Sequence record: MK327931.1 | From: Escherichia phage vB_EcoM_G17 | Strand: one strand, 5' to 3' | DNA: 64,000 nt | Shown: piece after piece, positions 926 to 48,737 of the stretch | Layout of the letters: every line of letters begins with the position of its first letter | Numbering within the stretch: position 1 is the stretch's first letter | Position numbers and translations under genes: made by a program | The notes under the pieces: generated by a model | The model's input: the letters and a program-made list of their open reading frames with translations, nothing else | Told to the model about the DNA's origin: nothing | Database searches by the model: none

Positions 926-3244
926 TTAGATTTTACAACTATCACAATCACCTTCATCCAAATCAGGAAGTGATGGTAATACAAATTGTCCAGATTCTGG
1001 TTTGGCAGCTTCTTTCAGTACTTTTTCAACGTCTACTTCATCTGAACCATCATTTGTATTATGATAATAAAGATTTTTCAAACCAACTTTATATGCATAC
1101 ATAAGTTCAGTTAGAAGAGTTGACATTGGCAACTTACCATCAGGGAAGTGTATTGGGTTATAACTAGTATTAACACTGATACTTTGGTCAATGTATTTTT
1201 GTAGAACACCACAGATTTGTAGATAACCAATGTTATCTTTCTGATCCCATAGTAAATCATATTTGTTTTTCAACTTATTGATTTCTGGAACTACTTGTTT
1301 AAGAATACCATCCTTAGATAGTTTCTTCGTTACAAGAGAACGTGGCTTTTCAATACCGTTAGTACTGTTACTGATTTGTGCACTTGTTTCTGCTGGCATT
1401 AATGCCATTGTTGTTGCGTTACGAATACCATATTCTTTGATATCGGCACGTAAGGATTCCCAATCTTGTTTTAGTTCTTTAGTTACTAATTCATCAATGT
1501 CCGATTTATAAGTATCGATTGGAAGGATACCTTTGGCATATTTTAGATTATCAAATCCTTCACACTTACCTTTCTCTTTAGCAAGCTGTACAGAAGATTT
1601 AATTAGATAGTAAGACCATGCCTCGGCCCACTCGTTAACTGTTTCTAGTGCTGCTTCATTATAACGTAAACCACGTTTAGCAAGGAAGTATGCAAAGTTA
1701 ATAATACCAACACCTAGTGGACGATACATTTTTGTAGCACGGTCAGCATGAACTACTGGGTAGTCTTGATAGTCTAATAGAGAATCAAGAGCACGAACAG
1801 AAAGATCACATGCCGTTTCCATATCTTCTGGACGGTCAAAGTTACCCCAGTTGATTGCACTCAATGTACATAAACTAATCAAACCTTCCCCAGTATTAAT
1901 GTCATCAAATGGCACAGATGGTAGTGCGATTTCTTGACACAAGTTGGATTGTTCAATAGGTGCAATAGATTCAATAAATGTTGAATGAGTGTTTGCATGG
2001 TCAATATTTTGAATATAGATACGCCCAGTTTCAGCACGCTCAGTCATTAAAGTACTGAATACTTCAACAGCAGGTACGGATTTTTTACGGATGCTTTGGT
2101 CAGCTTCGTATTTTTTATATAACTTTTCAAATTCTTTTTGATCAGAGCAGAATGCTTCATATAGCCCAGGGACTTCATTAGGACTAAAGAATGTAATATT
2201 CTTTCCATCAACCAAACGTTGATACAAAGTTTTGTTTACTTGGAAACAATAGTCCAGTTGACGCACACGGTTAAACTCAGTACCTTTGTTATTTTTAAGG
2301 ACTACCAAGTTATCAAATTCCAAATGCCACAATGGGAAGTGAACAGTTGCTGCACCACCACGAACACCACCTTGTGAACAGCTTTTAACAGTCTTAGCAG
2401 TAGCTGCAATGAACGGAATCAGCCCAGTGTGTACTGCATCACCTGAACGAATCTCGGAGTCCAGAGCACGAATGCGGCCCATATTAATACCAAGACCAGC
2501 TTTACGTGAAATATAACGTAGAATAGCGTGGTTAGAGGAACCAATACTATCCAAGCTGTCACCAACGTTTAGTACTACACAAGAGCTAAACTGACGTGTA
2601 TTTGTACGTAGACCAGCCATAATAGGCGTAGGAAGACTAATGTCAAAGTTACTTACTGCATCATAAAACTTTTTAACATATGACATACGAACAGAACGAT
2701 CATACTCCATAAAGATGATTGCTGCAATAGTCATATATGCCATTTGTGGAGTTTCATAAATTTTCTTAGTAACGCGATTTTTGTAAAGGTATTTTCCTTC
2801 CCATTGACGCATTGCAACATAAGTAAATTTATCGTCACGTTTATGTTTGATATAACGTCCAAGCTCTTCTATTTCTTGAAGAGTATATTTCTCAAGAATT
2901 TCAGGATCATATATTTTGGTATCAACCATTTCTTGAAGATGAGCAGTATATTTAATTGGGTCATACTGCCCATATACTTGCTTACGAATACTATAGTTTA
3001 ATAGTCTTCCAGCAACATATTGGTAATTAGGTGTATCTTCTGAAATAAGTTCTGCTGCTGCTTTAATAAGAATATCATGAATAGTACTAGTTTCAATACC
3101 TTCATAAAACTGAAGCTGTGCTCGGATTTCAATTTCAGAAACTGAAATACCACTTAAACCTTCAGCAGCGAAAAATAAAATTTGATGGATCTTATCCAAT
3201 GATAACGGCTCTTTCATTCCATTACGCTTGGTTACGTTAATCAT
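926..3244 (-). CDS. nrdA: Ribonucleotide reductase class Ia alpha subunit (NrdA)
   Basis: 772-aa ORF, ATG confirmed at 3244. N-terminal ATP-cone-like region and overall NrdA-like sequence; followed by nrdB. Confidence 0.92.
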   Translation of the reverse strand: MINVTKRNGMKEPLSLDKIHQILFFAAEGLSGISVSEIEIRAQLQFYEGIETSTIHDILIKAAAELISEDTPNYQYVAGRLLNYSIRKQVYGQYDPIKYTAHLQEMVDTKIYDPEILEKYTLQEIEELGRYIKHKRDDKFTYVAMRQWEGKYLYKNRVTKKIYETPQMAYMTIAAIIFMEYDRSVRMSYVKKFYDAVSNFDISLPTPIMAGLRTNTRQFSSCVVLNVGDSLDSIGSSNHAILRYISRKAGLGINMGRIRALDSEIRSGDAVHTGLIPFIAATAKTVKSCSQGGVRGGAATVHFPLWHLEFDNLVVLKNNKGTEFNRVRQLDYCFQVNKTLYQRLVDGKNITFFSPNEVPGLYEAFCSDQKEFEKLYKKYEADQSIRKKSVPAVEVFSTLMTERAETGRIYIQNIDHANTHSTFIESIAPIEQSNLCQEIALPSVPFDDINTGEGLISLCTLSAINWGNFDRPEDMETACDLSVRALDSLLDYQDYPVVHADRATKMYRPLGVGIINFAYFLAKRGLRYNEAALETVNEWAEAWSYYLIKSSVQLAKEKGKCEGFDNLKYAKGILPIDTYKSDIDELVTKELKQDWESLRADIKEYGIRNATTMALMPAETSAQISNSTNGIEKPRSLVTKKLSKDGILKQVVPEINKLKNKYDLLWDQKDNIGYLQICGVLQKYIDQSISVNTSYNPIHFPDGKLPMSTLLTELMYAYKVGLKNLYYHNTNDGSDEVDVEKVLKEAAKPESGQFVLPSLPDLDEGDCDSCKI

Positions 3245-5569: not shown

Positions 5570-6202
5570 TTATTTTTTAACGTATCCTAGAACACGTTTA
5601 ACTTTCTTTTCATTCTCAGAAAGCCATGTTTTCATTTCTTCTTTTGAACTAAAGTATTTAGTACCCACAGTTCCGCGAATACTTTCCATTTTTACACCAA
5701 CTTTACTTGGTTTAACAGATTCTTTCATTTCACGTTCAGTTGGTACTGGCTCAGAGATAATGTCTTCTTCAAAGTCTGCGTCTGCATCCATATCAAAAGT
5801 TGGGGTATCTGCTGCAATATCAATATCAACATCTTCACTTCCAATATCAGAAACATCTGGACCGTCAGTGATATCACCAGTTAGTTTAAGTGTTTCAGTA
5901 CTGATTTTGTCTTTTACATCCATTAAGGTAGTAACTGCATGTTGTAGTAGATGGCGAACATTATCACTAAAATTTTGTGCAGCATCTAGACCTTGCTCGG
6001 CTTTAATACGGTCAAGTAATGGGCCTAGTACGTCAACACCCATGTTGTTAATAACCTCAGATTGACGTTGGAGTTTATCCACAATCTCACCTTTTACTGA
6101 AAGAACAATTTCTGCTTTTTCAATATTAGATTCATTTAGTTGAATAAACTTCATAGCTTCTGCACGAGAAGCTGCTTCCATTAGTTTTTTATATTTTGAC
6201 AT
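5570..6202 (-). CDS. Hypothetical acidic protein
   Basis: ORF-track start is GTG; ATG at 6202 (MSKYKK...) has an AAGGAAA SD. Contains a D/E-rich segment. Confidence 0.5.
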   Translation of the reverse strand: MSKYKKLMEAASRAEAMKFIQLNESNIEKAEIVLSVKGEIVDKLQRQSEVINNMGVDVLGPLLDRIKAEQGLDAAQNFSDNVRHLLQHAVTTLMDVKDKISTETLKLTGDITDGPDVSDIGSEDVDIDIAADTPTFDMDADADFEEDIISEPVPTEREMKESVKPSKVGVKMESIRGTVGTKYFSSKEEMKTWLSENEKKVKRVLGYVKK

Positions 6203-20470: not shown

Positions 20471-21523
20471 TTACTTACCTTGTTGTTTCAAACGAGCAAC
20501 TAGTGCAGATGCAGATAGTTGTTCTTTTGGTGCTTCAGGAGTGGTTGCTGCTGGGGTAGCGACTGGAGTTACTGGAGCAGCTTGTGGGGCTGGTGTAACT
20601 GGAGCAGTAGGTGCTACTGGTGCAGGTGCTGACTCTTGTTGTACTGGAGCAGGAGTTGGTTTTGATTCAGTAACAGTTCCAGAGTTAGGTTTTGGTACAC
20701 CTGCTGGACGATATGCAAATGCCCAACGTGCTGGATCATATGCTTCACCATTTACTGATGCTTCGAACATTTCTTCAATTGCTTTCAACTCTTCTGGAGT
20801 TGGTTGTTTTGGCATAAAATCATTTAGATTGTATAGGCCATATTTTTCAATTGCTGCTAGTTCTTCTTCGTTTAGTGGACGCTCAGACATGGAGAATTGA
20901 GACATGTCGTAGCTATTATAACCACCACCATTCTTAGTTTTAACAATACCAAAATCACGACCTTGAACGTAGTGAGTTGGAGACTCTTTGATGCCTGGGT
21001 TTAGCAGGATGGATTTAACTTTATCAAAGATATCTTTGTTAGCCAGAATACGACGAATTGGATTTTCTGGTGCAATGTCGTCTTTTACTGCAACGCTATC
21101 AGGAGCAATAAAACATTGCATTAGATAGGTTTTCTTCTTCCAGTAACGACCAGCCATTGCTTTTAGTTCTTCGTTCCCTGTTTCATTCGCACTTTGGAAC
21201 CATTGACGTACTTCTTTCAGAACCGGACAGGATTTAGGAACCCACATTTCGTTACAAGGTACTTGAACGGTAACTTTATCAGTGTGCATACCGACTACAC
21301 CATTGAAAGTTAGGTTAATCATGTCACGTTCACGCCAGAAGAATGGGTTAGACTCATCTGCATCTGGTAGAAAACGTAGGTTTAGTGGTTCGTTATAAGG
21401 TACGTTCCAGAAAGCTAAGAACGAATCAGCTTTACGCTCGCCAGTAAATGTACCATTCTTTTGAGCTTCTGCTTTTTCTTGTTCTGCTTTTAGGTGTGCA
21501 CGAATTTCAGCTAGAGATTTCAT
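20471..21523 (-). CDS. gp32: Single-stranded DNA-binding protein (T4 gp32-like) with Pro/Ala-rich C-terminal tail
   Basis: 350 aa. ...LNLRFLPDADESNPFFW..., ...YLMQCFIAPDSVAVKDDIAPENPIRRIL... parallel gp32 core motifs as recalled; ATG with AAGGAAG SD. Confidence 0.7.
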   Translation of the reverse strand: MKSLAEIRAHLKAEQEKAEAQKNGTFTGERKADSFLAFWNVPYNEPLNLRFLPDADESNPFFWRERDMINLTFNGVVGMHTDKVTVQVPCNEMWVPKSCPVLKEVRQWFQSANETGNEELKAMAGRYWKKKTYLMQCFIAPDSVAVKDDIAPENPIRRILANKDIFDKVKSILLNPGIKESPTHYVQGRDFGIVKTKNGGGYNSYDMSQFSMSERPLNEEELAAIEKYGLYNLNDFMPKQPTPEELKAIEEMFEASVNGEAYDPARWAFAYRPAGVPKPNSGTVTESKPTPAPVQQESAPAPVAPTAPVTPAPQAAPVTPVATPAATTPEAPKEQLSASALVARLKQQGK

Positions 21524-21650
21524 ATATATCTTCCTTGATTTTGGGTTTCTTTGTTATTTGTTAATTGGCTTCAATGTTTCAGAAACTTCATTGTTCCTTC
21601 AACGTTTTACATTATAGCACAGGTTTTTATACTGTCCCATATTTTTTTAA

Positions 21651-26953: not shown

Positions 26954-26968
26954 TAAATAATATCATAG
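26954..26968 (+). promoter_or_regulatory. Extended late-promoter-like element ATAAATAATATCATA
   Basis: Same 14-15-nt core as the elements upstream of the capsid and acidic core genes (reverse complement at 39637-39652 and 42402-42417). Confidence 0.45.
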
Positions 26969-27069: not shown

Positions 27070-27669
27070 ATGAGTCTTAATTCTTTTAACCGTAACTATG
27101 GTATGTCTAGCGTTGCTCGCGAATGGTGGGGTGGTAATAACGGTTTCGTTACCATCGTAATCGATCTACCAACTGATGTTGAACTAGGTACTACCAAAGT
27201 TACTTCTGACGGTTCTGATGTTCAAGCTGAAGCGTATCAAACTGCTCTAAGTAATGCTCAATATAACCTATTCATGGTTACCCAACTACTACAACAACGT
27301 GCAGTTCTAGTTACTACCTCTCTACTAGCTCTTGATTCAGAAGTTGTTATTCCTGCTGATTTCAAAAATGCTAATCCAAACGTAGTTGCATTCGGTACTA
27401 GTGGTGCTGATGTAGCAGGTGGTGCTAATTCTGTTGCATTGACTTTCATCTGTGAACGTCAAGACGTATTTAACAAGCAAGAAGTTCGTCCTGGTTCAGC
27501 ATGTCCTGCTCCAGTTGATCCAACTGTTGACCTAGCTAAGTCTATCGCTCAAGCTAAAGTTTTCCGTACCAAAACTTTCGTAAGTCAAGGTACTGATGGT
27601 GTTGGTGATGCAGGTGCATCTACTGCTGTAGCAATTAAAGTACGTGCTGCTCTTCCTGTTCAACTATAA
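27070..27669 (+). CDS. Abundantly expressed protein, paralog A (199 aa), unknown function
   Basis: AAGGAG SD 7 nt upstream; strong capsid-like codon bias (Leu CTA, Arg CGT, Gly GGT); paralogous to the next gene. Confidence 0.7.
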   Translation: MSLNSFNRNYGMSSVAREWWGGNNGFVTIVIDLPTDVELGTTKVTSDGSDVQAEAYQTALSNAQYNLFMVTQLLQQRAVLVTTSLLALDSEVVIPADFKNANPNVVAFGTSGADVAGGANSVALTFICERQDVFNKQEVRPGSACPAPVDPTVDLAKSIAQAKVFRTKTFVSQGTDGVGDAGASTAVAIKVRAALPVQL

Positions 27670-27683
27670 TAGGAGGATAGATT

Positions 27684-28373
27684 ATGTCATATACTAATAC
27701 TTCTTTTGAACGTATCAATGGTTATTCCTTTGAACGTATTCTAGGTTACTTTTGTGGCACTAACGCCCTAGCATCCATTGCTATCAGTAAGCTAGGAAAC
27801 GTAAACGTTCTAGTTACTGGTGCAGTTTCTTCTTATGCTGGTCTACAACGTTTTCTAAACACTGATATTCCAGAAGAAATTCTAGCATATCTAAATGATA
27901 AAGGTATCAAACGTATTGATGGAACTGCATTTGTTCTTGGCACACTAGAAGCTGATTACAATGCATCTTATGCAGCACAAACTAACGTTAAACGTATTGT
28001 CGATGTTGTTCAACAACGTGCGGTTATCATCGCTACCTCTAACATCGCAGGTAATGGTCTTGAAGTATTTCCAGTTACTGGTTTCACCAACGCACCTGAT
28101 GGTGTATTGAGTGCAGGTTCAGTTAGTATTGCTGATGCTTCCGTTGTAACCTTCCTAGTTGAACGTGCTGGTGTCTTTAACAAAGATCTTAAATCACCAC
28201 AAGGTGTACCAAGTACTGAATCCGAAGAAGGCCGTCTACTAATTGATGATCTAACTGGTGTTCCGCTACTTGCTAAAGATGGTGTTACTGAAGTTTATCT
28301 ACGTTCCCAGTCTGCTGATGCAGCAGGGGATTTCGGTGTTAAACTTTTCCAATACATCCCAGCATTGGTTTAA
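27684..28373 (+). CDS. Abundantly expressed protein, paralog B (229 aa), unknown function
   Basis: AGGAGG SD; shares VQQRAVIIATS / ERAGVFNK with paralog A (QQRAVLVTTS / ERQDVFNK); same codon bias; followed by a terminator. Confidence 0.7.
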   Translation: MSYTNTSFERINGYSFERILGYFCGTNALASIAISKLGNVNVLVTGAVSSYAGLQRFLNTDIPEEILAYLNDKGIKRIDGTAFVLGTLEADYNASYAAQTNVKRIVDVVQQRAVIIATSNIAGNGLEVFPVTGFTNAPDGVLSAGSVSIADASVVTFLVERAGVFNKDLKSPQGVPSTESEEGRLLIDDLTGVPLLAKDGVTEVYLRSQSADAAGDFGVKLFQYIPALV

Positions 28374-29709: not shown

Positions 29710-30441
29710 TTAGCAGCCTGTTACGTAAAATTTGTATACTGCAATTCCAGTATCTAGTGTTACATTTAGCATACCAGTTTTAGTAATACCAAGTGATACT
29801 GATTCGGCATTAGATACGCGAGATAATGCTTGAAGTACGCGATCAATATTATAACCAAAACCAAGACCTAATTCACCTTCAGTTTTAGAAAAAGCTAGAG
29901 AACCAACGTGGTTACTTTTGTTTTTCTCACCAACGTGAAAGTATAGGGTGTCGCCTTCAGTATACGGAGTTACAAGAGAACTAAAAGATTTAAATACACC
30001 AGAAAAACTCTTTAGTTCCTGAACTTTTGCTGCACTAGGAATAACCTGTACGTCATATGGTTGTTCATGAAAACGTGGTTGAACTGGAATAAGTTTTTCA
30101 GCTTGTACCATAAATGTAGTGCTTGCATCTTCAGATTTAAATGCCAGACTTTTAACTGAACCATCTTTAACATTTGATGTGATTGTGGTTCCTTCGGTAC
30201 TGTATGTTTTTAGAGACATTAGACCCTGAAGAAGACCTAGATTACCTAAGCCAAAACGACCCTGAACTTCAGGAACATCTTCTTTAGTATATGCTCGCAT
30301 TACAAGAGTTCGGTCATCTGTGTACGCTTCTAGATATACACGTTGTCCTTCACCACGGTCTTCACTGCTTACTGCAATACAAGAGAAGTCAATACCACTG
30401 GTTGTGTTTACGAGGTCACGTAGTACGTTGCGTAGATCCAT
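29710..30441 (-). CDS. Hypothetical protein (243 aa); possible sliding clamp by size and context
   Basis: Acidic 243-aa protein near the DNA polymerase gene; no sequence match to gp45 was confirmed. Confidence 0.3.
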   Translation of the reverse strand: MDLRNVLRDLVNTTSGIDFSCIAVSSEDRGEGQRVYLEAYTDDRTLVMRAYTKEDVPEVQGRFGLGNLGLLQGLMSLKTYSTEGTTITSNVKDGSVKSLAFKSEDASTTFMVQAEKLIPVQPRFHEQPYDVQVIPSAAKVQELKSFSGVFKSFSSLVTPYTEGDTLYFHVGEKNKSNHVGSLAFSKTEGELGLGFGYNIDRVLQALSRVSNAESVSLGITKTGMLNVTLDTGIAVYKFYVTGC

Positions 30442-36647: not shown

Positions 36648-36956
36648 CTATAGCAAGTCGTTATCCATATCATCCCATACGGAATCAATAATGTTGGCTG
36701 CTATCTTTTTAGACATTTTAAACCACTCGGTATTGGGTTGTCTAGTTGCATTCATCTGCTTAAGCCTTTTATGTATTTCTTTTTCAGCCAAACGTGCATC
36801 ATCAAAATGAACTTCATGATATACTTCAAAGTCACGAAATGGTGTAGCAGTCTGATACGTTCTTAGACGTTCTGTCATTTCTGATTTTGAAGTAAAACCA
36901 ATTTTAACATACTCAGGCCATGCAGAATTTATTATAACATAACATATCTGTGACAT
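36648..36956 (-). CDS. T5orf172 / GIY-YIG-like domain protein (stand-alone)
   Basis: Start placed at MSQICYVIINSAWPEYVKIGFT (GGAGA SD); CYVII...KIGFT...RL..Y pattern typical of the T5orf172 family. Confidence 0.5.
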   Translation of the reverse strand: MSQICYVIINSAWPEYVKIGFTSKSEMTERLRTYQTATPFRDFEVYHEVHFDDARLAEKEIHKRLKQMNATRQPNTEWFKMSKKIAANIIDSVWDDMDNDLL

Positions 36957-36995
36957 AGATTCAATCTCCATCATTAATATGGAGATATTTATCTA

Positions 36996-37355
36996 TCAAC
37001 TAATAGTGAATTTCAAACCAATATCTATTAAACGTTGAAAAGGATTATGGGGCTGAAATTCAGAAGGTTCTTGTGTAATGTTTAGTACTGGAGCGTCTGA
37101 GTGTAATTGTGACATACGTTCCCTATAATGATCTATGTATTCTTCATATAACATATCTTCAGTATGTGTGTTTAGTATATCTTCTATAAAAGAATCTAAA
37201 CTATAATCCAATCTATCATCATTATAATACAATGTTTCAGTGGCTTCATCATATCCAACTAACGTACCATAAGGAACATTTATTTCTATATTTGAGTACT
37301 GACTCTTTAAGTACTCTTCTTTGTTAAATTTGTATACAGTTAACATCCGTGTCAA
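36996..37355 (-). CDS. Hypothetical protein (119 aa)
   Basis: ORF between the two T5orf172-type genes. Confidence 0.45.
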   Translation of the reverse strand: MTRMLTVYKFNKEEYLKSQYSNIEINVPYGTLVGYDEATETLYYNDDRLDYSLDSFIEDILNTHTEDMLYEEYIDHYRERMSQLHSDAPVLNITQEPSEFQPHNPFQRLIDIGLKFTIS

Positions 37356-37369
37356 CTCCTTTAGATTGT

Positions 37370-38293
37370 TTACTTAAAAGTATTTACAATTTCTAAAACA
37401 CTTTCAAGATACTTAGCATCAAATGTTTCAGTAAATCCTGACGGTAACTCTTCAGTACTTACAACACCACTTTCAATGTATTTCTTTATGAACTTTTCCA
37501 ACAGTAATGGTTGATTGCCATCTTCAAAGTAGCGTTCTACAAGTACTTCATGCTCGAACTCAGAATTGCGACTTTGTTCGTTTACACGGCGTTTCATATC
37601 ACCAGTGATTCCATACTTGTACACCGTCTTGTCATTGTTAGTTAGTTTTTGAACATAGAAATATCCAGGTTTTGATGGTTGATAACCATACTCACCACAT
37701 GATGGACATCCTCTTCCTGCCATATGAGATTTGGGTATTTGTTTAAAGACACCATGTTCAGGACAAATAATATCCACATGTTCATCACTAGTCTTGTAAT
37801 CCACCAAGCTATAATCATACTTATGGTTATGGATAGGCGACACAAGTTCAATGAAACGTTCAGTACTTCTTCCACCTTTACCAGAACATATTCCACAACT
37901 AGTTTTTCCTTTTAATAATGTTGCGGCTGATACTTCCCAATCATGCACATCATTCGGATCATTATGACATGTAACGATGACTCGCCCATTACTGTCACTT
38001 TGTTTTTTGTAGATAGTTTTCTCAAATGACAATGTTGGATGGATGGTTTTAACTTTTTCAATAAACGTTTCGGTCGTGTATGCTGTGTTTTTTTGACAAA
38101 TGTTACATCCTTTTGCAGAAGGTCGGACTATTTGCATAGGAGTGATTTTGAAATAATGACAACCTTCTACACAATAAAGTTCAACCTGTTTATGAGCATT
38201 AATATATACCATTTTATCAAACAAATACACACCAGTACCATACTTTTCATTCACTGCATTAATAAATTTTTCTTCATTTGGATTCATTGTCAT
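37370..38293 (-). CDS. Homing-endonuclease-like protein: three Cys/His zinc-ribbon-like repeats plus C-terminal T5orf172 domain
   Basis: Three ~60-aa repeats (FIEKV...IHP...Y.Y...V.I.C..HG.F......H..G.GCP.C); C-terminal KTVYKYGITGDMKRRVNEQ T5orf172-like domain. Confidence 0.5.
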   Translation of the reverse strand: MTMNPNEEKFINAVNEKYGTGVYLFDKMVYINAHKQVELYCVEGCHYFKITPMQIVRPSAKGCNICQKNTAYTTETFIEKVKTIHPTLSFEKTIYKKQSDSNGRVIVTCHNDPNDVHDWEVSAATLLKGKTSCGICSGKGGRSTERFIELVSPIHNHKYDYSLVDYKTSDEHVDIICPEHGVFKQIPKSHMAGRGCPSCGEYGYQPSKPGYFYVQKLTNNDKTVYKYGITGDMKRRVNEQSRNSEFEHEVLVERYFEDGNQPLLLEKFIKKYIESGVVSTEELPSGFTETFDAKYLESVLEIVNTFK

Positions 38294-38351
38294 TTCTCTT
38301 CTTCATTTATAATGTACGCGTATTATTACACAAAAAATGTGACATGTCAAC

Positions 38352-38392
38352 ACAAAAAAGAAAAGGGACTCCGAAGAGTCCCTATTGTTTTT
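38352..38392. terminator. Bidirectional rho-independent terminator after the capsid gene
   Basis: gggactc-cgaa-gagtccc stem flanked by an A-run and a T-run. Confidence 0.65.
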
Positions 38393-38426
38393 AATTTCTT
38401 GATTAAATCTTTTAAATCGATTACAA

Positions 38427-39602
38427 TTACATGAAAGTAACGTTTTTGATAGCGATTTTGCTGTAGTAGTCAGCAGCGTTACCAAGAGAAGAAGTACTAT
38501 CAGTCAATTGTACATAACCATACCTGGTAAGGAAAGTTGTGACCAATTCCCCAGTGTTAGGGTCCATTACAGTACCGGAAGCCATTAGTGGGATGTATGG
38601 GCAATAGAACACACCAGCATCAGTTTCTGCATTACCTTTATAACCAATTAGAATATCTTCTGCATCACTTGCATAAGTATCAACAAAAATACGCATAGTG
38701 CTGTTTAGAGTACCTACAAACTTAACGTTAGTTGGGGCTTCGAAAGTACCTTCAGTGGTACGTGCAAAGCTAGAAGTAGTAGCAGATTGTAGAATGGTTA
38801 GTGCAGTTGGGGAAACAACAGCCCAGTTTGCAGCACCACGCTTAGTACGACGAGCAACTTCGTTTGCTTGACGGTTAATTAGAGTTGCTAGAGCAGCGTG
38901 CTCATCACCAACGAAGGTTGCAACACCAGTAACTTTAGATTGGTCATAAGTTACAGCAGCAGCACCAGGTAGTGCACGTAGACGGCTTAGTAGCTCTTGG
39001 TCGATTTCTACGGTAACTTCTTGAGCGATTGCAGCCATTAGTTCTGCTTCAACGTCAACACCATGTTGGGATTGTGCATCTTGTGCAGATTCAACAGTCC
39101 AACGTGCAGATAGACGACGAGATTTCGCTTCAACAGTTTCACGTAGAATACGGATGTTAACGCGACGACCCATAGTACCTTCTAGTTGGCTAGTAGGAGC
39201 AGCTTGTGGGTTGCTATTATCCGCATTTAGATCACCAGAGTAAGATTTAGCGATTTTGTATGGAGAAAGCATTTCTTCACCAGCGATTACACCAGGTGCG
39301 TTATCAGCATATTGTACACGTAGGGTGTGGATCTGACCAACTGGACCAGTCATAGGTTGAACACCGATGATTTCGTTAGCAATAACGGTTGGCATTACAC
39401 GACGCATAATTGGTAGAATCACTTTGTTTAGAGTAGCGATGTTACCAGCGGTAGTTGCACCAGAAGTTGCGGATTCAGTTAGCATAACTTTACGATGGTT
39501 ATCAAGAACAGTTTCCATTACAGACTTACGAGTACCCTGTAGACCTTCAACTAGTTTCTCTTTTACTGCTACCCATTTGGATTCATTTAGTAGTTGTGAC
39601 AT
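38427..39602 (-). CDS. gp23: Major capsid protein (T4 gp23-like)
   Basis: 391 aa. ...IANEIIGVQPMTGPVGQIHTLRVQY..., ...VEAKSRRLSARWTVESAQD..., ...IGYKGNAETDAGVFYCPYIPL... collinear with T4 gp23 as recalled; AAGGAG SD; strong codon bias. Confidence 0.88.
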   Translation of the reverse strand: MSQLLNESKWVAVKEKLVEGLQGTRKSVMETVLDNHRKVMLTESATSGATTAGNIATLNKVILPIMRRVMPTVIANEIIGVQPMTGPVGQIHTLRVQYADNAPGVIAGEEMLSPYKIAKSYSGDLNADNSNPQAAPTSQLEGTMGRRVNIRILRETVEAKSRRLSARWTVESAQDAQSQHGVDVEAELMAAIAQEVTVEIDQELLSRLRALPGAAAVTYDQSKVTGVATFVGDEHAALATLINRQANEVARRTKRGAANWAVVSPTALTILQSATTSSFARTTEGTFEAPTNVKFVGTLNSTMRIFVDTYASDAEDILIGYKGNAETDAGVFYCPYIPLMASGTVMDPNTGELVTTFLTRYGYVQLTDSTSSLGNAADYYSKIAIKNVTFM

Positions 39603-39636
39603 TATATATCTCCTTAAAGATGTTATATTCGTTTTT

Positions 39637-39667
39637 CAGTATGATATTATTTATAGAACTGAAAAAT
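39637..39667 (-). promoter_or_regulatory. Late promoter (TATAAATA) with extended conserved element, upstream of the capsid gene
   Basis: Minus-sense ...cagttcTATAAATAATATCATACTgaaaaa...; TATAAATA at 39647-39654, about 45 nt upstream of the ATG. Confidence 0.6.
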
Positions 39668-39693
39668 TTGATTATTAAAATGCTTTAAAATGT

Positions 39694-40809
39694 TTATTTT
39701 TTATTGATACCTGAAAGAACATCTAGTTCTTTTAGGAATGCCATATCGTCAGCGGTCATTTCTTCGCTTTCAACAATAGCCTGACGGTTGCCAGTGATTA
39801 CTTTACCTTCTGCAAGAGTTTTCTTAGCGGAAGACTGAACTGCTTGACGAGTGGTAGCAGATTCATTTACTTTAGTACCGTTAAGTACTGACTTATGGTA
39901 CTTGCTGAAATCTTCTTTAAGCTTTTCAGTAGGTGAAGTAGCTAGAAGGGATTCCATAATTTGTTTTTGCTGTGCAGTTAGTGGTTTTACTAGTTCAGAC
40001 ATAATCGCATTACGTGCTTGTGCATCTTCCATAATACGTAGTTTGGTTTTAGCAGCTTTAACGGCATTAGCAGTTTCATGTAGTTCTTGCTTAACTTGAG
40101 CAATTTCATCTTCTTTAGATTTAATTGATTCAGTTAGGGAACGTAGCAATGAGTTTTCATTAAATTGTTTGACATTAAACTCTTGAGCAAATGCTTCAAA
40201 GATTTTACGACCAAACATATTTTGTTTTGCTTCCACTAGATCTTGTTTCAACGCATATAGATTCTTCTGAGTGGTTTCTGCAATATATTTAGCAGCACTT
40301 TCAGATGTACGTTTGATGAAGTTATTACGAGCTTCAGCAATTTGACGTGAACCTTCAGCAAGTAGTTTAACGCGAGTTTCTACTAGTTGGCGTTTTTCAG
40401 TGTGGAATTCTTTTAGCTCTTCTGCTAGGATACCGTTAGAAAAATTAACGAATTTACCCATGCATTCATGAAGATGCTTACGTTCTTTACGCATTTGTTT
40501 AACTTCTTCAGCCAAAACAGAGTTTGAAAACGCAGAGAAATTGCTTAGTGTTTTACGTAGAGTTACACGATCTTCAACGAGACGTTTTTTCTCTTCATAT
40601 ACAGCACCCATTTCTTCAGCAATGACTTGAGTAACCATCGTGTTCAAACCTTCGGTTAGTTCAGCCAAATCTTGCTGATAACGGCCTTTCATTTCTTCAC
40701 GCATCTCTGCGGCTAGTGTATTCTTTTCTTCATTCCATGCTTCCTGAATTAGCTGTTTTGCCTCATCAGAAAGAGATGATTCTTTTAGAAGCTTTTCTAA
40801 TTTAGACAT
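39694..40809 (-). CDS. gp22: Prohead core scaffolding protein (T4 gp22-like)
   Basis: 371-aa coiled-coil-rich E/K/A/Q protein between the protease and capsid genes; AAAGGAGA SD. Confidence 0.6.
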   Translation of the reverse strand: MSKLEKLLKESSLSDEAKQLIQEAWNEEKNTLAAEMREEMKGRYQQDLAELTEGLNTMVTQVIAEEMGAVYEEKKRLVEDRVTLRKTLSNFSAFSNSVLAEEVKQMRKERKHLHECMGKFVNFSNGILAEELKEFHTEKRQLVETRVKLLAEGSRQIAEARNNFIKRTSESAAKYIAETTQKNLYALKQDLVEAKQNMFGRKIFEAFAQEFNVKQFNENSLLRSLTESIKSKEDEIAQVKQELHETANAVKAAKTKLRIMEDAQARNAIMSELVKPLTAQQKQIMESLLATSPTEKLKEDFSKYHKSVLNGTKVNESATTRQAVQSSAKKTLAEGKVITGNRQAIVESEEMTADDMAFLKELDVLSGINKK

Positions 40810-41519: not shown

Positions 41520-42368
41520 TTATTTTAGTTTAGGTTGTGCTTTGCTTAGTGGTGATTTAGAATTAGATGCAGTAGTTTTTGGTGCTTTAACATCTTTCAT
41601 TTCACCGCGAGCATTTTTACCAAGATCTAGGCTATCTTTTGGTAGAACAGATTTATCATCTAGGTCTAGTAGTGGGGCTTGGTCAGTTTTCTTAGCGAAT
41701 TTAACTGGCTCTGCTCCTGCTACTGGAGATTTAGCTTCTGGTGCTACTGGAGATTTGGAATGAGTGCCAGCTTTTTCTTTCTTATCAACTGGAGCAACTT
41801 TTTCTAGTTTGAAGGATTCACCGAATTTTTCATCGCCGAATTCAACATCAGCAAATTCGTCGTCACCGTCAACACCAACTTCTTCTTCGCTATCTTCTAC
41901 TTCTTCTTCAGAATCTAGATCAACTTCACCGTCACCGATTTCATCAAACATTTGTTGTAGGCCACGGAAAGCATCTTGGATTGATTCCCATTGGTCTTCG
42001 GAAGGAACATCAGCATCAGCTTTCACTTCAACGTCAACATCGTCTTCACCGTCACCATCTGCATCAGCAGAGAATTCAACTTCTTCTTCTGCACTTTCAT
42101 CTTCTTCACCAAGGGTGTATTCGATTTCAGCATTTAGACCTTCGTCTGGTTGTACATCAAAATCTTCGTCAAGCTTTTCTTCATCTTTGACTTTAACTTC
42201 GACTTCACAATCTTCATCGTCGTCTTCATCTTCCATGCTTTCTTCTAGTTGTTTGTTAATTTCTTGAGCTTGCTCAACGAAATACTTACGCATTTTTTTA
42301 TCAGCAATATCTTGTTCGCCATTTGCAAACGCCGCAATTGCTTCTTGTAGTAGTTTTAAATTCGCCAT
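41520..42368 (-). CDS. Highly acidic prohead core / internal protein (gp67/gp68-position)
   Basis: Start placed at MANLKLL (GGAGGA SD); long D/E-rich segments; between portal and protease as the T4 core proteins. Confidence 0.5.
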   Translation of the reverse strand: MANLKLLQEAIAAFANGEQDIADKKMRKYFVEQAQEINKQLEESMEDEDDDEDCEVEVKVKDEEKLDEDFDVQPDEGLNAEIEYTLGEEDESAEEEVEFSADADGDGEDDVDVEVKADADVPSEDQWESIQDAFRGLQQMFDEIGDGEVDLDSEEEVEDSEEEVGVDGDDEFADVEFGDEKFGESFKLEKVAPVDKKEKAGTHSKSPVAPEAKSPVAGAEPVKFAKKTDQAPLLDLDDKSVLPKDSLDLGKNARGEMKDVKAPKTTASNSKSPLSKAQPKLK

Positions 42369-42401: not shown

Positions 42402-42431
42402 AGTATGATATTATTTAGTACTGAATAAAAT
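42402..42431 (-). promoter_or_regulatory. Late-promoter-like element (CTAAATAATATCATACT) upstream of the acidic core gene
   Basis: Shares the core agtatgatattattta plus actgaa(a/t)aaaat with the capsid-gene upstream element at 39637-39667. Confidence 0.45.
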
Positions 42432-47902: not shown

Positions 47903-47911
47903 TTTTCATAT

Positions 47912-47938
47912 AGCCAGCACATTGTTGCTGGTTTTTTT
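47912..47938 (+). terminator. Rho-independent terminator
   Basis: ccagca-cattgt-tgctgg stem followed by a run of seven T. Confidence 0.7.
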
Positions 47939-47939
47939 G

Positions 47940-48737
47940 GTTTTAAACTACAGAATTATTTGAATTGAATTATGAAAGGATTAATTTTAATATTATTGGA
48001 TTCATCTAACTCATTTCATTCGTTAGCTGAAGAATATTCGTTACTACGTAACTCATATTCATTTAATTAAATTAATTATAAAGAACTTTAAAAGATTTAA
48101 TACTTGACGGGATTTGTTGAGGACATTTTCATCCCCCCGCAGGGGAATGAAGACAATAAAAAAGAGACAATGAAGTCTCTATTTCTTGACGCTGATGGTT
48201 TCAGCATTTATTGTATTGCGAATTTCTTAAAAATATATTAAGAACGAAAGCGGGTTGCTCTGTTTCTCTCTATCGCAGTCATGTGCAACGGTCGTCAGTC
48301 TTAATCATCCTGACACTCACCTGAAAGTCTATACAATCAAACTTCAGGCTGTTTATTAAAATCACTTAATAAACTCCCTTAGCAAATCTGGTAAGGTGCG
48401 ATCCTTATATGTCTATCGAGGAACTCTCTGTATGCTTATCGGAGTTCTTTATTGAGCCGCATTGCCGTGAGGGGTTCAAACTATGCCCACATCTAACGGG
48501 TTTCTTTTGCTCATCGCACTGTTGAACTGCTCATCTGCCATCTACATTTTCGATAGGATCAGGTTCTAATTTATATGCATTTCTGCATTCAACAGGATTG
48601 TCATTACTACAACAAACATTATAGCACAAACTTTAAAGTTGTCTCACTATTTTTATAAAAATATTCATTAAGTACTTAAAATATTGCAAATAACTAATCT
48701 ATAAATATTTTGATAACAAATAGTTTGGTGAGGAATT
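47940..48737. other. ORF-free, hairpin-rich intergenic region of about 0.8 kb
   Basis: No ORF of 60 aa or more on any frame; local GC about 40-50% at 48120-48540 against about 30% in flanks; several perfect short inverted repeats. No tRNA cloverleaf could be drawn. Confidence 0.5.
48700..48707 (+). promoter_or_regulatory. Late promoter TATAAATA upstream of the Endo VII-like gene
   Basis: Exact TATAAATA 31 nt upstream of the ATG at 48738; GAGGAA SD. Confidence 0.5.

Follow-up and report, generated by a model that had tools for sequence, protein, structure and literature searches.

Strong bias towards the leucine codon CTA in the capsid gene and other abundant-protein genes of an Asteriusvirus jumbo phage

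Introduction

Host-type translational selection for optimal codons is the form of selection that Ikemura, and Sharp and Li, reportedly described in Escherichia coli, and Cowe and Sharp are said to have described in 1991 how codon usage varies by gene class in phage T4. A co-adaptation between the transfer RNAs (tRNAs) that phages encode and the codons that phages use was reportedly set out by Bailly-Bechet and colleagues in 2007 (cited in PMC7318152). Such co-adaptation has also been cited for Shigella phage Sf14 (PMC12482277) and phage CBB (PMC5259590). That the structural genes of phages have codon biases linked to expression is well established, and the finding that we report here is mostly ordinary in that respect, with one odd detail. 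It concerns the leucine (Leu) codons in a 64,000-nucleotide stretch of Escherichia phage vB_EcoM_G17 (MK327931.1), which as a whole is called the window below, and above all those in the gene for the major capsid protein.

The window is 100% identical to positions 143631-207630 of phage Sharanji (OR545507.1), a jumbo myovirus of the genus Asteriusvirus (121Q/PBECO4 group, RaK2-like) whose isolation host is E. coli K-12 MG1655. Genome-wide counts were made on the complete Sharanji genome (350,079 bp, joined from eight pieces), in which 583 open reading frames (ORFs) were called. Sharanji resembles T4 in being an AT-rich myovirus of E. coli with a capsid of the Gp23 type, and in both phages the genes of abundant proteins use a different and more selected codon set than the bulk genes do. 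The two phages differ in that T4 gp23 follows the codons of the host, whereas CTA, CAA and CCA are used in Sharanji and in related phages; in Sharanji, moreover, the genes divide by abundance and not by stage. Compared with optimal-codon selection in E. coli, Sharanji is alike at most amino acids and opposite at Leu, proline (Pro) and glutamine (Gln). Compared with phage tRNA-codon co-adaptation, the tRNAs of the group of phages around CBB fit CTA, CCA and CAA, whereas Sharanji lacks a cognate tRNA.

There is thus a mismatch, in that the capsid gene of a coliphage takes 80% of its Leu codons from CTA, the rarest Leu codon of its host, and no phage tRNA accompanies this choice, whereas T4 uses the codon that serves the host best. 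No earlier description of a CTA bias in the abundant genes of phages was found in the literature searched. The mismatch bears on the order in which phages acquire tRNAs and codon habits, and on whether jumbo phages reshape the tRNA pool of their hosts.

Results and Discussion

CTA predominates among the leucine codons of the capsid gene

The capsid gene, Sharanji gp356, is a 391-codon ORF of the Gp23 type whose product matches its Pfam family with an E-value of 1.3e-89 (301.7 bits, compared with a cutoff of 24.4). The protein encoded in the window is 100% identical to Sharanji gp356 and to the annotated major capsid proteins of 121Q and PBECO4. Its gene contains 30 Leu codons, comprising 24 CTA, four CTT and two TTG, with no TTA, CTC or CTG. 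Across the 583 ORFs of the genome, by comparison, Leu is encoded by TTA at 34.5%, CTT at 19.4%, CTA at 18.1%, TTG at 17.5%, CTG at 6.9% and CTC at 3.6%. When the CTA excess of each gene was evaluated with a binomial test against this genome-wide Leu usage, the capsid gene proved the most extreme of the 432 testable genes (p=2.8e-13, or about 1e-10 after Bonferroni correction). The CTA bias of the capsid gene is confirmed as real and highly significant.

The bias is accompanied by others. Arginine is encoded by CGT at 19 of 21 positions, glycine by GGT at 25 of 26, threonine by ACT or ACC at 39 of 40 and isoleucine by ATC at 12 of 21, and the capsid gene also has the highest fraction of host-optimal codons at amino acids other than Leu (0.73, compared with a median of 0.43). 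These counts agree with an earlier reading of the window made from sequence alone, which had named CGT, GGT, ACT/ACC and ATC alongside CTA. That sequence-only reading had also held that Leu is overwhelmingly CTA in the capsid gene and in two islet paralogs (gp341 and gp342), which is borne out by 24/30, 11/15 and 15/22 CTA codons, respectively. It had further held that early genes such as nrdA use mainly TTA and TTG. The contrast holds for the bulk of the genes, but nrdA was a poor example of it, since TTA and TTG together make up only 28 of the 71 Leu codons (39%) of nrdA (926-3244, minus strand), which has 14 TTA, 14 TTG, 22 CTT, 17 CTA and 4 CTG.

Within the window, the segment at 38001-40000 has a higher G+C fraction (0.384), and its GC skew is opposite in sign to that of the neighbouring minus-strand genes. 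This anomaly is the compositional footprint of the codon bias, as the third codon positions of the coding strand are poor in G and richer in C.

Eight genes share the bias, and product abundance probably sets them apart

A CTA excess with p<1e-5 was found in 8 of the 432 genes, and the next best gene has p=8e-4. The eight are the genes of the capsid protein, gp357, gp359, gp341, gp342, the gp32-like single-stranded DNA-binding protein (SSB) gp335, the tail sheath protein gp408 and the large protein gp387 (Table 1). The products of gp341 and gp342 are paralogous (BLASTP E=8e-9), and gp335 is identified by matches to Pfam gp32 (E=5e-7) and to the SSB family phrog_1192 (E=2e-101). In the following, the high set used for codon fractions consists of seven of these genes, with gp387 left out. 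The most abundant protein of the RaK2 virion is that of the capsid (PMC3622015).

Table 1. Genes and promoter-like sequences discussed in the text, with their positions in the window.
Feature	Position	Strand	CTA of all Leu codons	p (CTA excess)	Remarks
gp356, major capsid protein	38427..39602	-			Pfam PF07068; strongest CTA bias in genome
gp357	39694..40809	-	21/37	1.6e-7	phrog_10922; scaffolding protein in 121Q annotation
gp359, virion structural protein	41520..42368	-	14/18	5.8e-8	phrog_15696 (E=3e-126)
gp341, virion structural protein	27070..27669	+	11/15	4.5e-6	First islet paralog; phrog_9326 (E=1e-86)
gp342, virion structural protein	27684..28373	+	15/22	3.4e-7	Second islet paralog; phrog_9326 (E=4.5e-86)
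gp335, gp32-like SSB	20471..21523	-	15/21	1.3e-7	Non-virion
gp408, tail sheath			35/64	<1e-5	
gp387, large protein			54/144	<1e-5	
gp346, function unknown	29710..30441	-	11/24	1.6e-3	Non-significant after correction
gp314, virion structural family	5570..6202	-	8/15	2.2e-3	phrog_14154; non-significant after correction
TGCTATAATG upstream of SSB gene	21610..21619	-			Extended -10 (sigma70-like) sequence; sequence match only
TAAATAATATCATA upstream of capsid gene	39640..39653	-			Late-promoter-like 14-mer; overlaps TATAAATA at 39648-39655
TAAATAATATCATA upstream of gp359	42404..42417	-			Exact match
TAAATAATATCATA upstream of gp341-gp342 pair	26954..26967	+			Exact match

The sequence-only reading had proposed a temporal split, with CTA in late genes as opposed to early ones. 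In our analysis, gene timing was taken from function and from promoter-like motifs, and protein abundance from protein identity and from relatives. As a temporal programme, the proposal would assign CTA to the whole class of late genes and TTA or TTG to the early ones, served by an abundant tRNA-Leu(UAG), and it can point to the fact that most of the CTA-rich genes are virion genes with a late-promoter-like TAAATAA motif. However, 12 other late or morphogenesis genes of the window (terminase, portal, protease, tail fibre, tail-fibre assembly protein, gp362, baseplate gp363 and gp371-375) have, when pooled, only 65 CTA among 436 Leu codons (15%) and 41% TTA, whereas nine genes of replication and nucleotide metabolism have 88 among 413 (21%) and the abundant-protein set has 100 among 143 (70%). 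The abundant set differs from the other late genes with p=3e-34 (Fisher's exact test), and the other late genes lie below the replication genes (p=0.016). Moreover, the SSB is a replication protein, and its gene, upstream of which lies the sigma70-like -10 sequence TGCTATAATG, has the same bias. The temporal programme is further contradicted by the lack of a tRNA-Leu in the phage and by the avoidance of CTA in highly expressed host genes, both described below, and we regard it as extremely unlikely. Codon statistics gene by gene thus uphold a CTA enrichment in eight genes and not in the late class as a whole relative to the early one. Given that other late genes have 15% CTA and that the SSB gene belongs to the CTA-rich set, the divide is one of the amount of product and not of stage, with timing judged from function and promoter-like sequences.

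The bias acts on codons in frame

The depletion and enrichment of Leu codons in the high set were compared among the three reading frames. The ratio of high set to rest is 0.13 for TTA in frame, compared with 0.88 and 0.69 in the other frames; 0.19 for CTG in frame, compared with 2.14 and 0.75; and 3.67 for CTA in frame, compared with 1.25 and 0.58. Because the depletion of TTA and CTG and the enrichment of CTA are confined to the frame, avoidance of a sequence motif is ruled out.

This test bears on the possibility that selection acts on sequence as such, through avoidance of nuclease or restriction motifs, or that the genes were imported from a donor of other composition. The capsid gene does have an unusually G-poor coding strand and a GC skew opposite in sign to that of its neighbours, but TTA and CTG are depleted only in frame. 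The CTA-rich genes are also dispersed among ordinary genes, at 164, 171, 182-186, 230 and 252 kb of the Sharanji genome; the prohead protease gene, which lies between two of them, has only 4 CTA among 15 Leu codons; and the bias is kept in orthologues across genera. We therefore consider a sequence-level cause very improbable, with motif or nuclease avoidance discarded on the strength of the frame test and horizontal import on the strength of the dispersal of the genes and the retention of the bias in orthologues. A reassignment of CTA to another amino acid was likewise rejected, since CTA codons of Sharanji align with CTG, CTT, CTC, TTG or TTA at conserved Leu columns in RaK2, CBB and EJP2.

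The bias extends in a coordinated manner to other amino acids. When genes were ranked by a host-optimal index over 14 amino acids other than Leu, the genes of the capsid protein, gp341, gp359, gp357, gp342 and the SSB fell within the top 7 of 237, and across genes the index correlates with the CTA fraction (Spearman 0.34, p=7.5e-8). For arginine, CGT rises to 93% in the high set from 48% in the rest, and AGA falls to 0% from 25%. The presence of the bias only in frame and its tracking of host-optimal codons at other amino acids point to selection that acts through decoding, and we class the bias as expression-linked translational selection on genes of abundant proteins, which is a known kind of feature. 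The idea of translational optimisation in the sequence-only reading stands in this form, as the codon set is distinct, non-random and covarying across amino acids.

Preferred codons depart from those of the host at leucine, proline and glutamine

Host preference was measured on 25 ribosomal-protein and rpoA genes of E. coli K-12. For most amino acids, the codons preferred by the phage agree with host usage; the abundant phage genes shift to host-preferred codons for Arg, Gly, Thr, Ile, Val, Ser, Ala, Phe, Asn and Glu (CGT, GGT, ACT/ACC, ATC, GTT, TCT/TCC, GCT, TTC, AAC and GAA). At Leu, Pro and Gln, they contradict the highly expressed genes of the host. Abundant phage genes use CTA for 65% of Leu, CCA for 71% of Pro and CAA for 88% of Gln, compared with 78% CTG, 61% CCG and 75% CAG in the host genes. 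CTA accounts for just 2 of the 269 Leu codons (0.7%) in these host genes, in keeping with the description of CTA in the sequence-only reading as rare in many bacteria.

T4 does not share these departures. Its gp23 gene has 18 CTG and no CTA among 29 Leu codons, 20 CAG among 28 Gln codons and 10 CCG among 22 Pro codons. Given that T4 is equally AT-rich, infects the same host and uses CTG, AT pressure alone does not explain the CTA of Sharanji.

The host-preferred codons CTG, CCG and CAG are not only passed over in the high set of Sharanji but fall below the phage background (1% compared with 7%, 2% compared with 8% and 12% compared with 26%, respectively), which raises the possibility that infection remodels the tRNA pool. 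The isoacceptors with C at position 34, namely Leu(CAG), Pro(CGG) and Gln(CUG), would become unavailable, or leuW, the host gene for tRNA-Leu(UAG), would be boosted, so that CUG, CCG and CAG turned into poor codons and CUA into a good one, and the bias would be a footprint of host shut-off or of counter-defence. We judge this quite unlikely. It draws some support from T4, which in the same host does not avoid CTG, CCG and CAG and has no such footprint, and from phage genes for a TadA-like deaminase, a CCA-adding enzyme, an RNA ligase and IF3. On the other hand, the high set is low in every one of the 13 G-ending codons, and a general bias against G in third position accounts for these data with no need of tRNA loss; nor was a candidate nuclease identified. 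The metT operon of the host includes leuW and glutamine tRNAs with the anticodon UUG, and it is similarly doubtful that the pattern in RaK2-like jumbo phages is the footprint of an infection-specific change in the pool, either by loss of C34 isoacceptors or by a boost of this operon. If it were, the change would stall host messages while the structural messages of the phage passed.

The tRNAs of the phage do not read CTA

No tRNA and no Rfam RNA family was found in the 64-kb window. The complete genome encodes seven tRNAs, all at 93.7-98.0 kb, of which five are Thr-UGU, Asn-GUU, Arg-UCU, Ser-UGA and Gly-UCC and two have a long variable arm (anticodons CAU and ACU); Rfam likewise recognizes only these seven in the tRNA island. 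No tRNA-Leu was found in the 350,079 bp by ARAGORN, which was applied both to the eight pieces and to the joined sequence, with settings that permit introns and a lowered score threshold. The relaxed search added a low-scoring 'Val-GAC' at 207712 and a low-scoring 'Asp-ATC' at 325346, neither of which is a Leu tRNA. The published description of Sharanji agrees on the tRNA content (PMC11895373). In the syntenic tRNA island of other Asteriusvirus genomes, the annotated tRNAs are Ser, Met, Arg, Thr, Asn, Gly and, once, Ile, with no Leu.

The sequence-only reading had also postulated an abundant tRNA-Leu(UAG), encoded by the host or by the phage beyond the window. None came to light: the scan of the complete genome returned seven tRNAs without a Leu species, and the host's own ribosomal-protein genes all but dispense with CTA. 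One leuW gene was located in E. coli, within the metT tRNA operon. We take it to be the only such gene in K-12 and its tRNA to be a minor species, and this tRNA was reportedly the least abundant leucine isoacceptor in the measurements of Dong et al. in 1996.

The codons that the phage tRNAs do read are mostly avoided by the abundant genes. Comparing the high set with the rest, AGA, the codon of Arg-UCU, falls to 0 from.25; ACA, that of Thr-UGU, to.11 from.37; GGA, that of Gly-UCC, to.06 from.24; and TCA, that of Ser-UGA, to.16 from.28. Likewise ATA, which the CAU tRNA would read only if modified with lysidine, falls to.02 from.21. The exception is Asn-GUU, as AAC rises in the high set (.53 compared with.32). 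Most of the phage tRNAs therefore suit the bulk genes rather than those with the highest expression, contrary to the usual view that phages carry tRNAs for the benefit of their late structural genes.

The two long-arm (type II) tRNAs lie at Sharanji positions 95373-95462 and 95470-95561, both on the minus strand. The CAU tRNA has the discriminator base A73 and is annotated as Met, although it is annotated as Ile in phage ph0011; the ACU tRNA has the rare A34 together with G73 and is annotated as Ser. Another phage product, gp491, is a TadA-like tRNA adenosine deaminase and could turn A34 into inosine. Both tRNAs were considered as readers of CUA and rejected, since neither of their anticodon loops (CUCAUAA and CUACUAA) is able to decode CUA under standard rules.

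The bias is shared by related phages and may predate their tRNA-Leu(UAG)

The capsid genes of related phages have the same preference. CTA accounts for 25 of 31 Leu codons in WPEC5, a close E. coli-infecting relative whose capsid protein is 98.7% identical, for 25 of 30 in the Asteriusvirus EJP2, for 25 of 29 in CBB of the tRNA-rich sister group, for 16 of 26 in RaK2 (plus 7 CTG) and for 13 of 28 in the Pseudomonas phage PA5oct (plus 10 TTA). The preference is thus clade-wide among the RaK2-like phages and weaker in PA5oct, which is like Sharanji in having a CTA-enriched capsid gene but differs in its TTA count, in encoding two tRNA-Leu(UAA) and in having a host of 66% GC.

Among close relatives, CTA codons of the capsid gene change less than other codons do. 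All 24 that could be compared with WPEC5 are unchanged, while 16% of the other synonymous codons differ, and 22 of 23 are unchanged in EJP2, where 25% of the others differ. Pooled over both phages, 1 of 47 CTA codons changed, compared with 133 of 651 other synonymous codons (p=8e-4). Differences in Leu codons between lineages include gains as well as losses of CTA, and TTA counts remain 0-2 across the three Asteriusvirus capsid genes. Evidence for continuing selection on CTA is limited to the capsid gene.

CBB encodes 32-33 tRNAs, among them Leu(UAG) at 280358-280440, two Pro(UGG) and Gln(UUG) (PMC5259590 supplement), and these three specificities correspond exactly to the codon preferences that the abundant genes do not share with the host. 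Among the best 60 of 258 matches, homologues of the CBB tRNA-Leu(UAG) were found in XbC2, fHe-Yen9-04, Erwinia phages and GAP32, and none was found in an Asteriusvirus or a RaK2-group phage. RaK2 has five tRNAs and no tRNA-Leu (PMC3622015), and PA5oct has two tRNA-Leu(UAA) and no Leu(UAG) (PMC7318152). In CBB, the tRNA-Leu(UAG) lies beside Pth2; in RaK2 and EJP2, Pth2 abuts the next gene and leaves no space and no remnant, and Sharanji lacks the Pth2 block altogether.

These observations can be read in two directions. In one, an ancestral set of Leu(UAG), Pro(UGG) and Gln(UUG) tRNAs was mostly lost in Asteriusvirus, and the codon bias is a relic that is decaying or has simply been inherited. 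The exact match between the CTA, CCA and CAA departures and the tRNAs present in CBB speaks for such a relic, as do the homologues of the CBB tRNA-Leu(UAG) in several sister phages. However, a search of Sharanji for a remnant of that tRNA with blastn-short gave only chance matches of 11-13 nt, RaK2, EJP2 and PA5oct are biased without having a tRNA-Leu(UAG), and the CTA codons of the capsid gene are more conserved in the genus than other synonymous codons, with no drift to TTA. A single gain is also more parsimonious than two or three losses. On balance, we think it unlikely that the bias is a relic. In the other direction, which is favoured if RaK2 and PA5oct are taken as the more distant phages by capsid identity, the tRNA would have been gained once, in the CBB group; this suggests that the codon habit came first and the tRNA later.

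In the CBB segment 272001-322000, a tRNA with the anticodon CUA is also present (amber suppressor or 'Pyl'), and several CBB tRNAs contain introns according to ARAGORN, with assignments unlike those of the GenBank annotation.

Expression level is the probable basis of the bias

We consider it likely that the bias reflects expression level and is not stage-specific, with a few genes for bulk products driven to a restricted codon set. Translational selection would have fixed this set in the genes of the capsid protein, the scaffold-like protein, three virion proteins, the tail sheath, gp387 and the SSB. It would comprise host-optimal codons (CGT, GGT, ACT/ACC, ATC, GTT, TCT, GCT, TTC and AAC) except for the A-ending CTA, CCA and CAA. 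With no tRNA-Leu encoded by Sharanji itself, CUA would have to be read by the host tRNA-Leu(UAG), the product of leuW. The preference for CTA is probably older than the tRNA-Leu(UAG) of CBB, GAP32 and the Yersinia and Erwinia phages, and the CBB group most likely gained this tRNA to serve an existing codon habit. The early and late reading of the window is thereby corrected, in that abundance and not stage divides the genes.

Several points weigh against this explanation. The abundance of the products is read here from what the proteins are and from related phages. The choice of Leu codon breaks the usual rule that optimal codons correspond to abundant tRNAs, with 0.7% CTA in the host and 0 CTA among the 29 Leu codons of T4 gp23. 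In the scaffold-like gene and in gp359, CTA codons are not conserved beyond the level of the remaining synonymous codons; of those in the scaffold gene, 17 of 21 are unchanged relative to WPEC5 and 7 of 18 relative to EJP2. Finally, the polarity of a gain in the CBB group is weakly indicated, as it comes from one locus and from capsid identity standing in for phylogeny. The explanation accounts for the bias only in part and does not extend to the preference for CTA over CTG or TTA in an E. coli cell.

Promoter-like sequences and the surroundings of the capsid gene

The 14-mer TAAATAATATCATA has three exact copies in the 350-kb genome, each just upstream of a CTA-rich virion gene. When up to one mismatch was allowed, there were 5 matches in the window compared with 0.24 expected, and none of 100 shuffles reached 5. 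We regard TAAATAATATCATA as a probable late promoter variant of high strength, akin to TATAAATA of T4.

Directly downstream of the capsid gene, at 36648-38293 on the minus strand, lie gp355 (DUF4379 treble-clef zinc finger, annotated as 'endonuclease' in 121Q and RaK2) and gp353 (T5orf172). Related phages match an 8-kb region beside the capsid gene as two pieces, with 94-95% coverage, and this pattern suggests presence/absence variation of putative mobile endonuclease genes adjoining the capsid gene.

Between gp364 and gp365, about 835 bp (47903-48737) carry no annotated gene, no ORF of at least 46 amino acids and no Rfam match. The right end of this interval contains the promoter-like sequences TATAAATA at 48700-48707 on the plus strand and TGCTATAATG at 48617-48626 on the minus strand.

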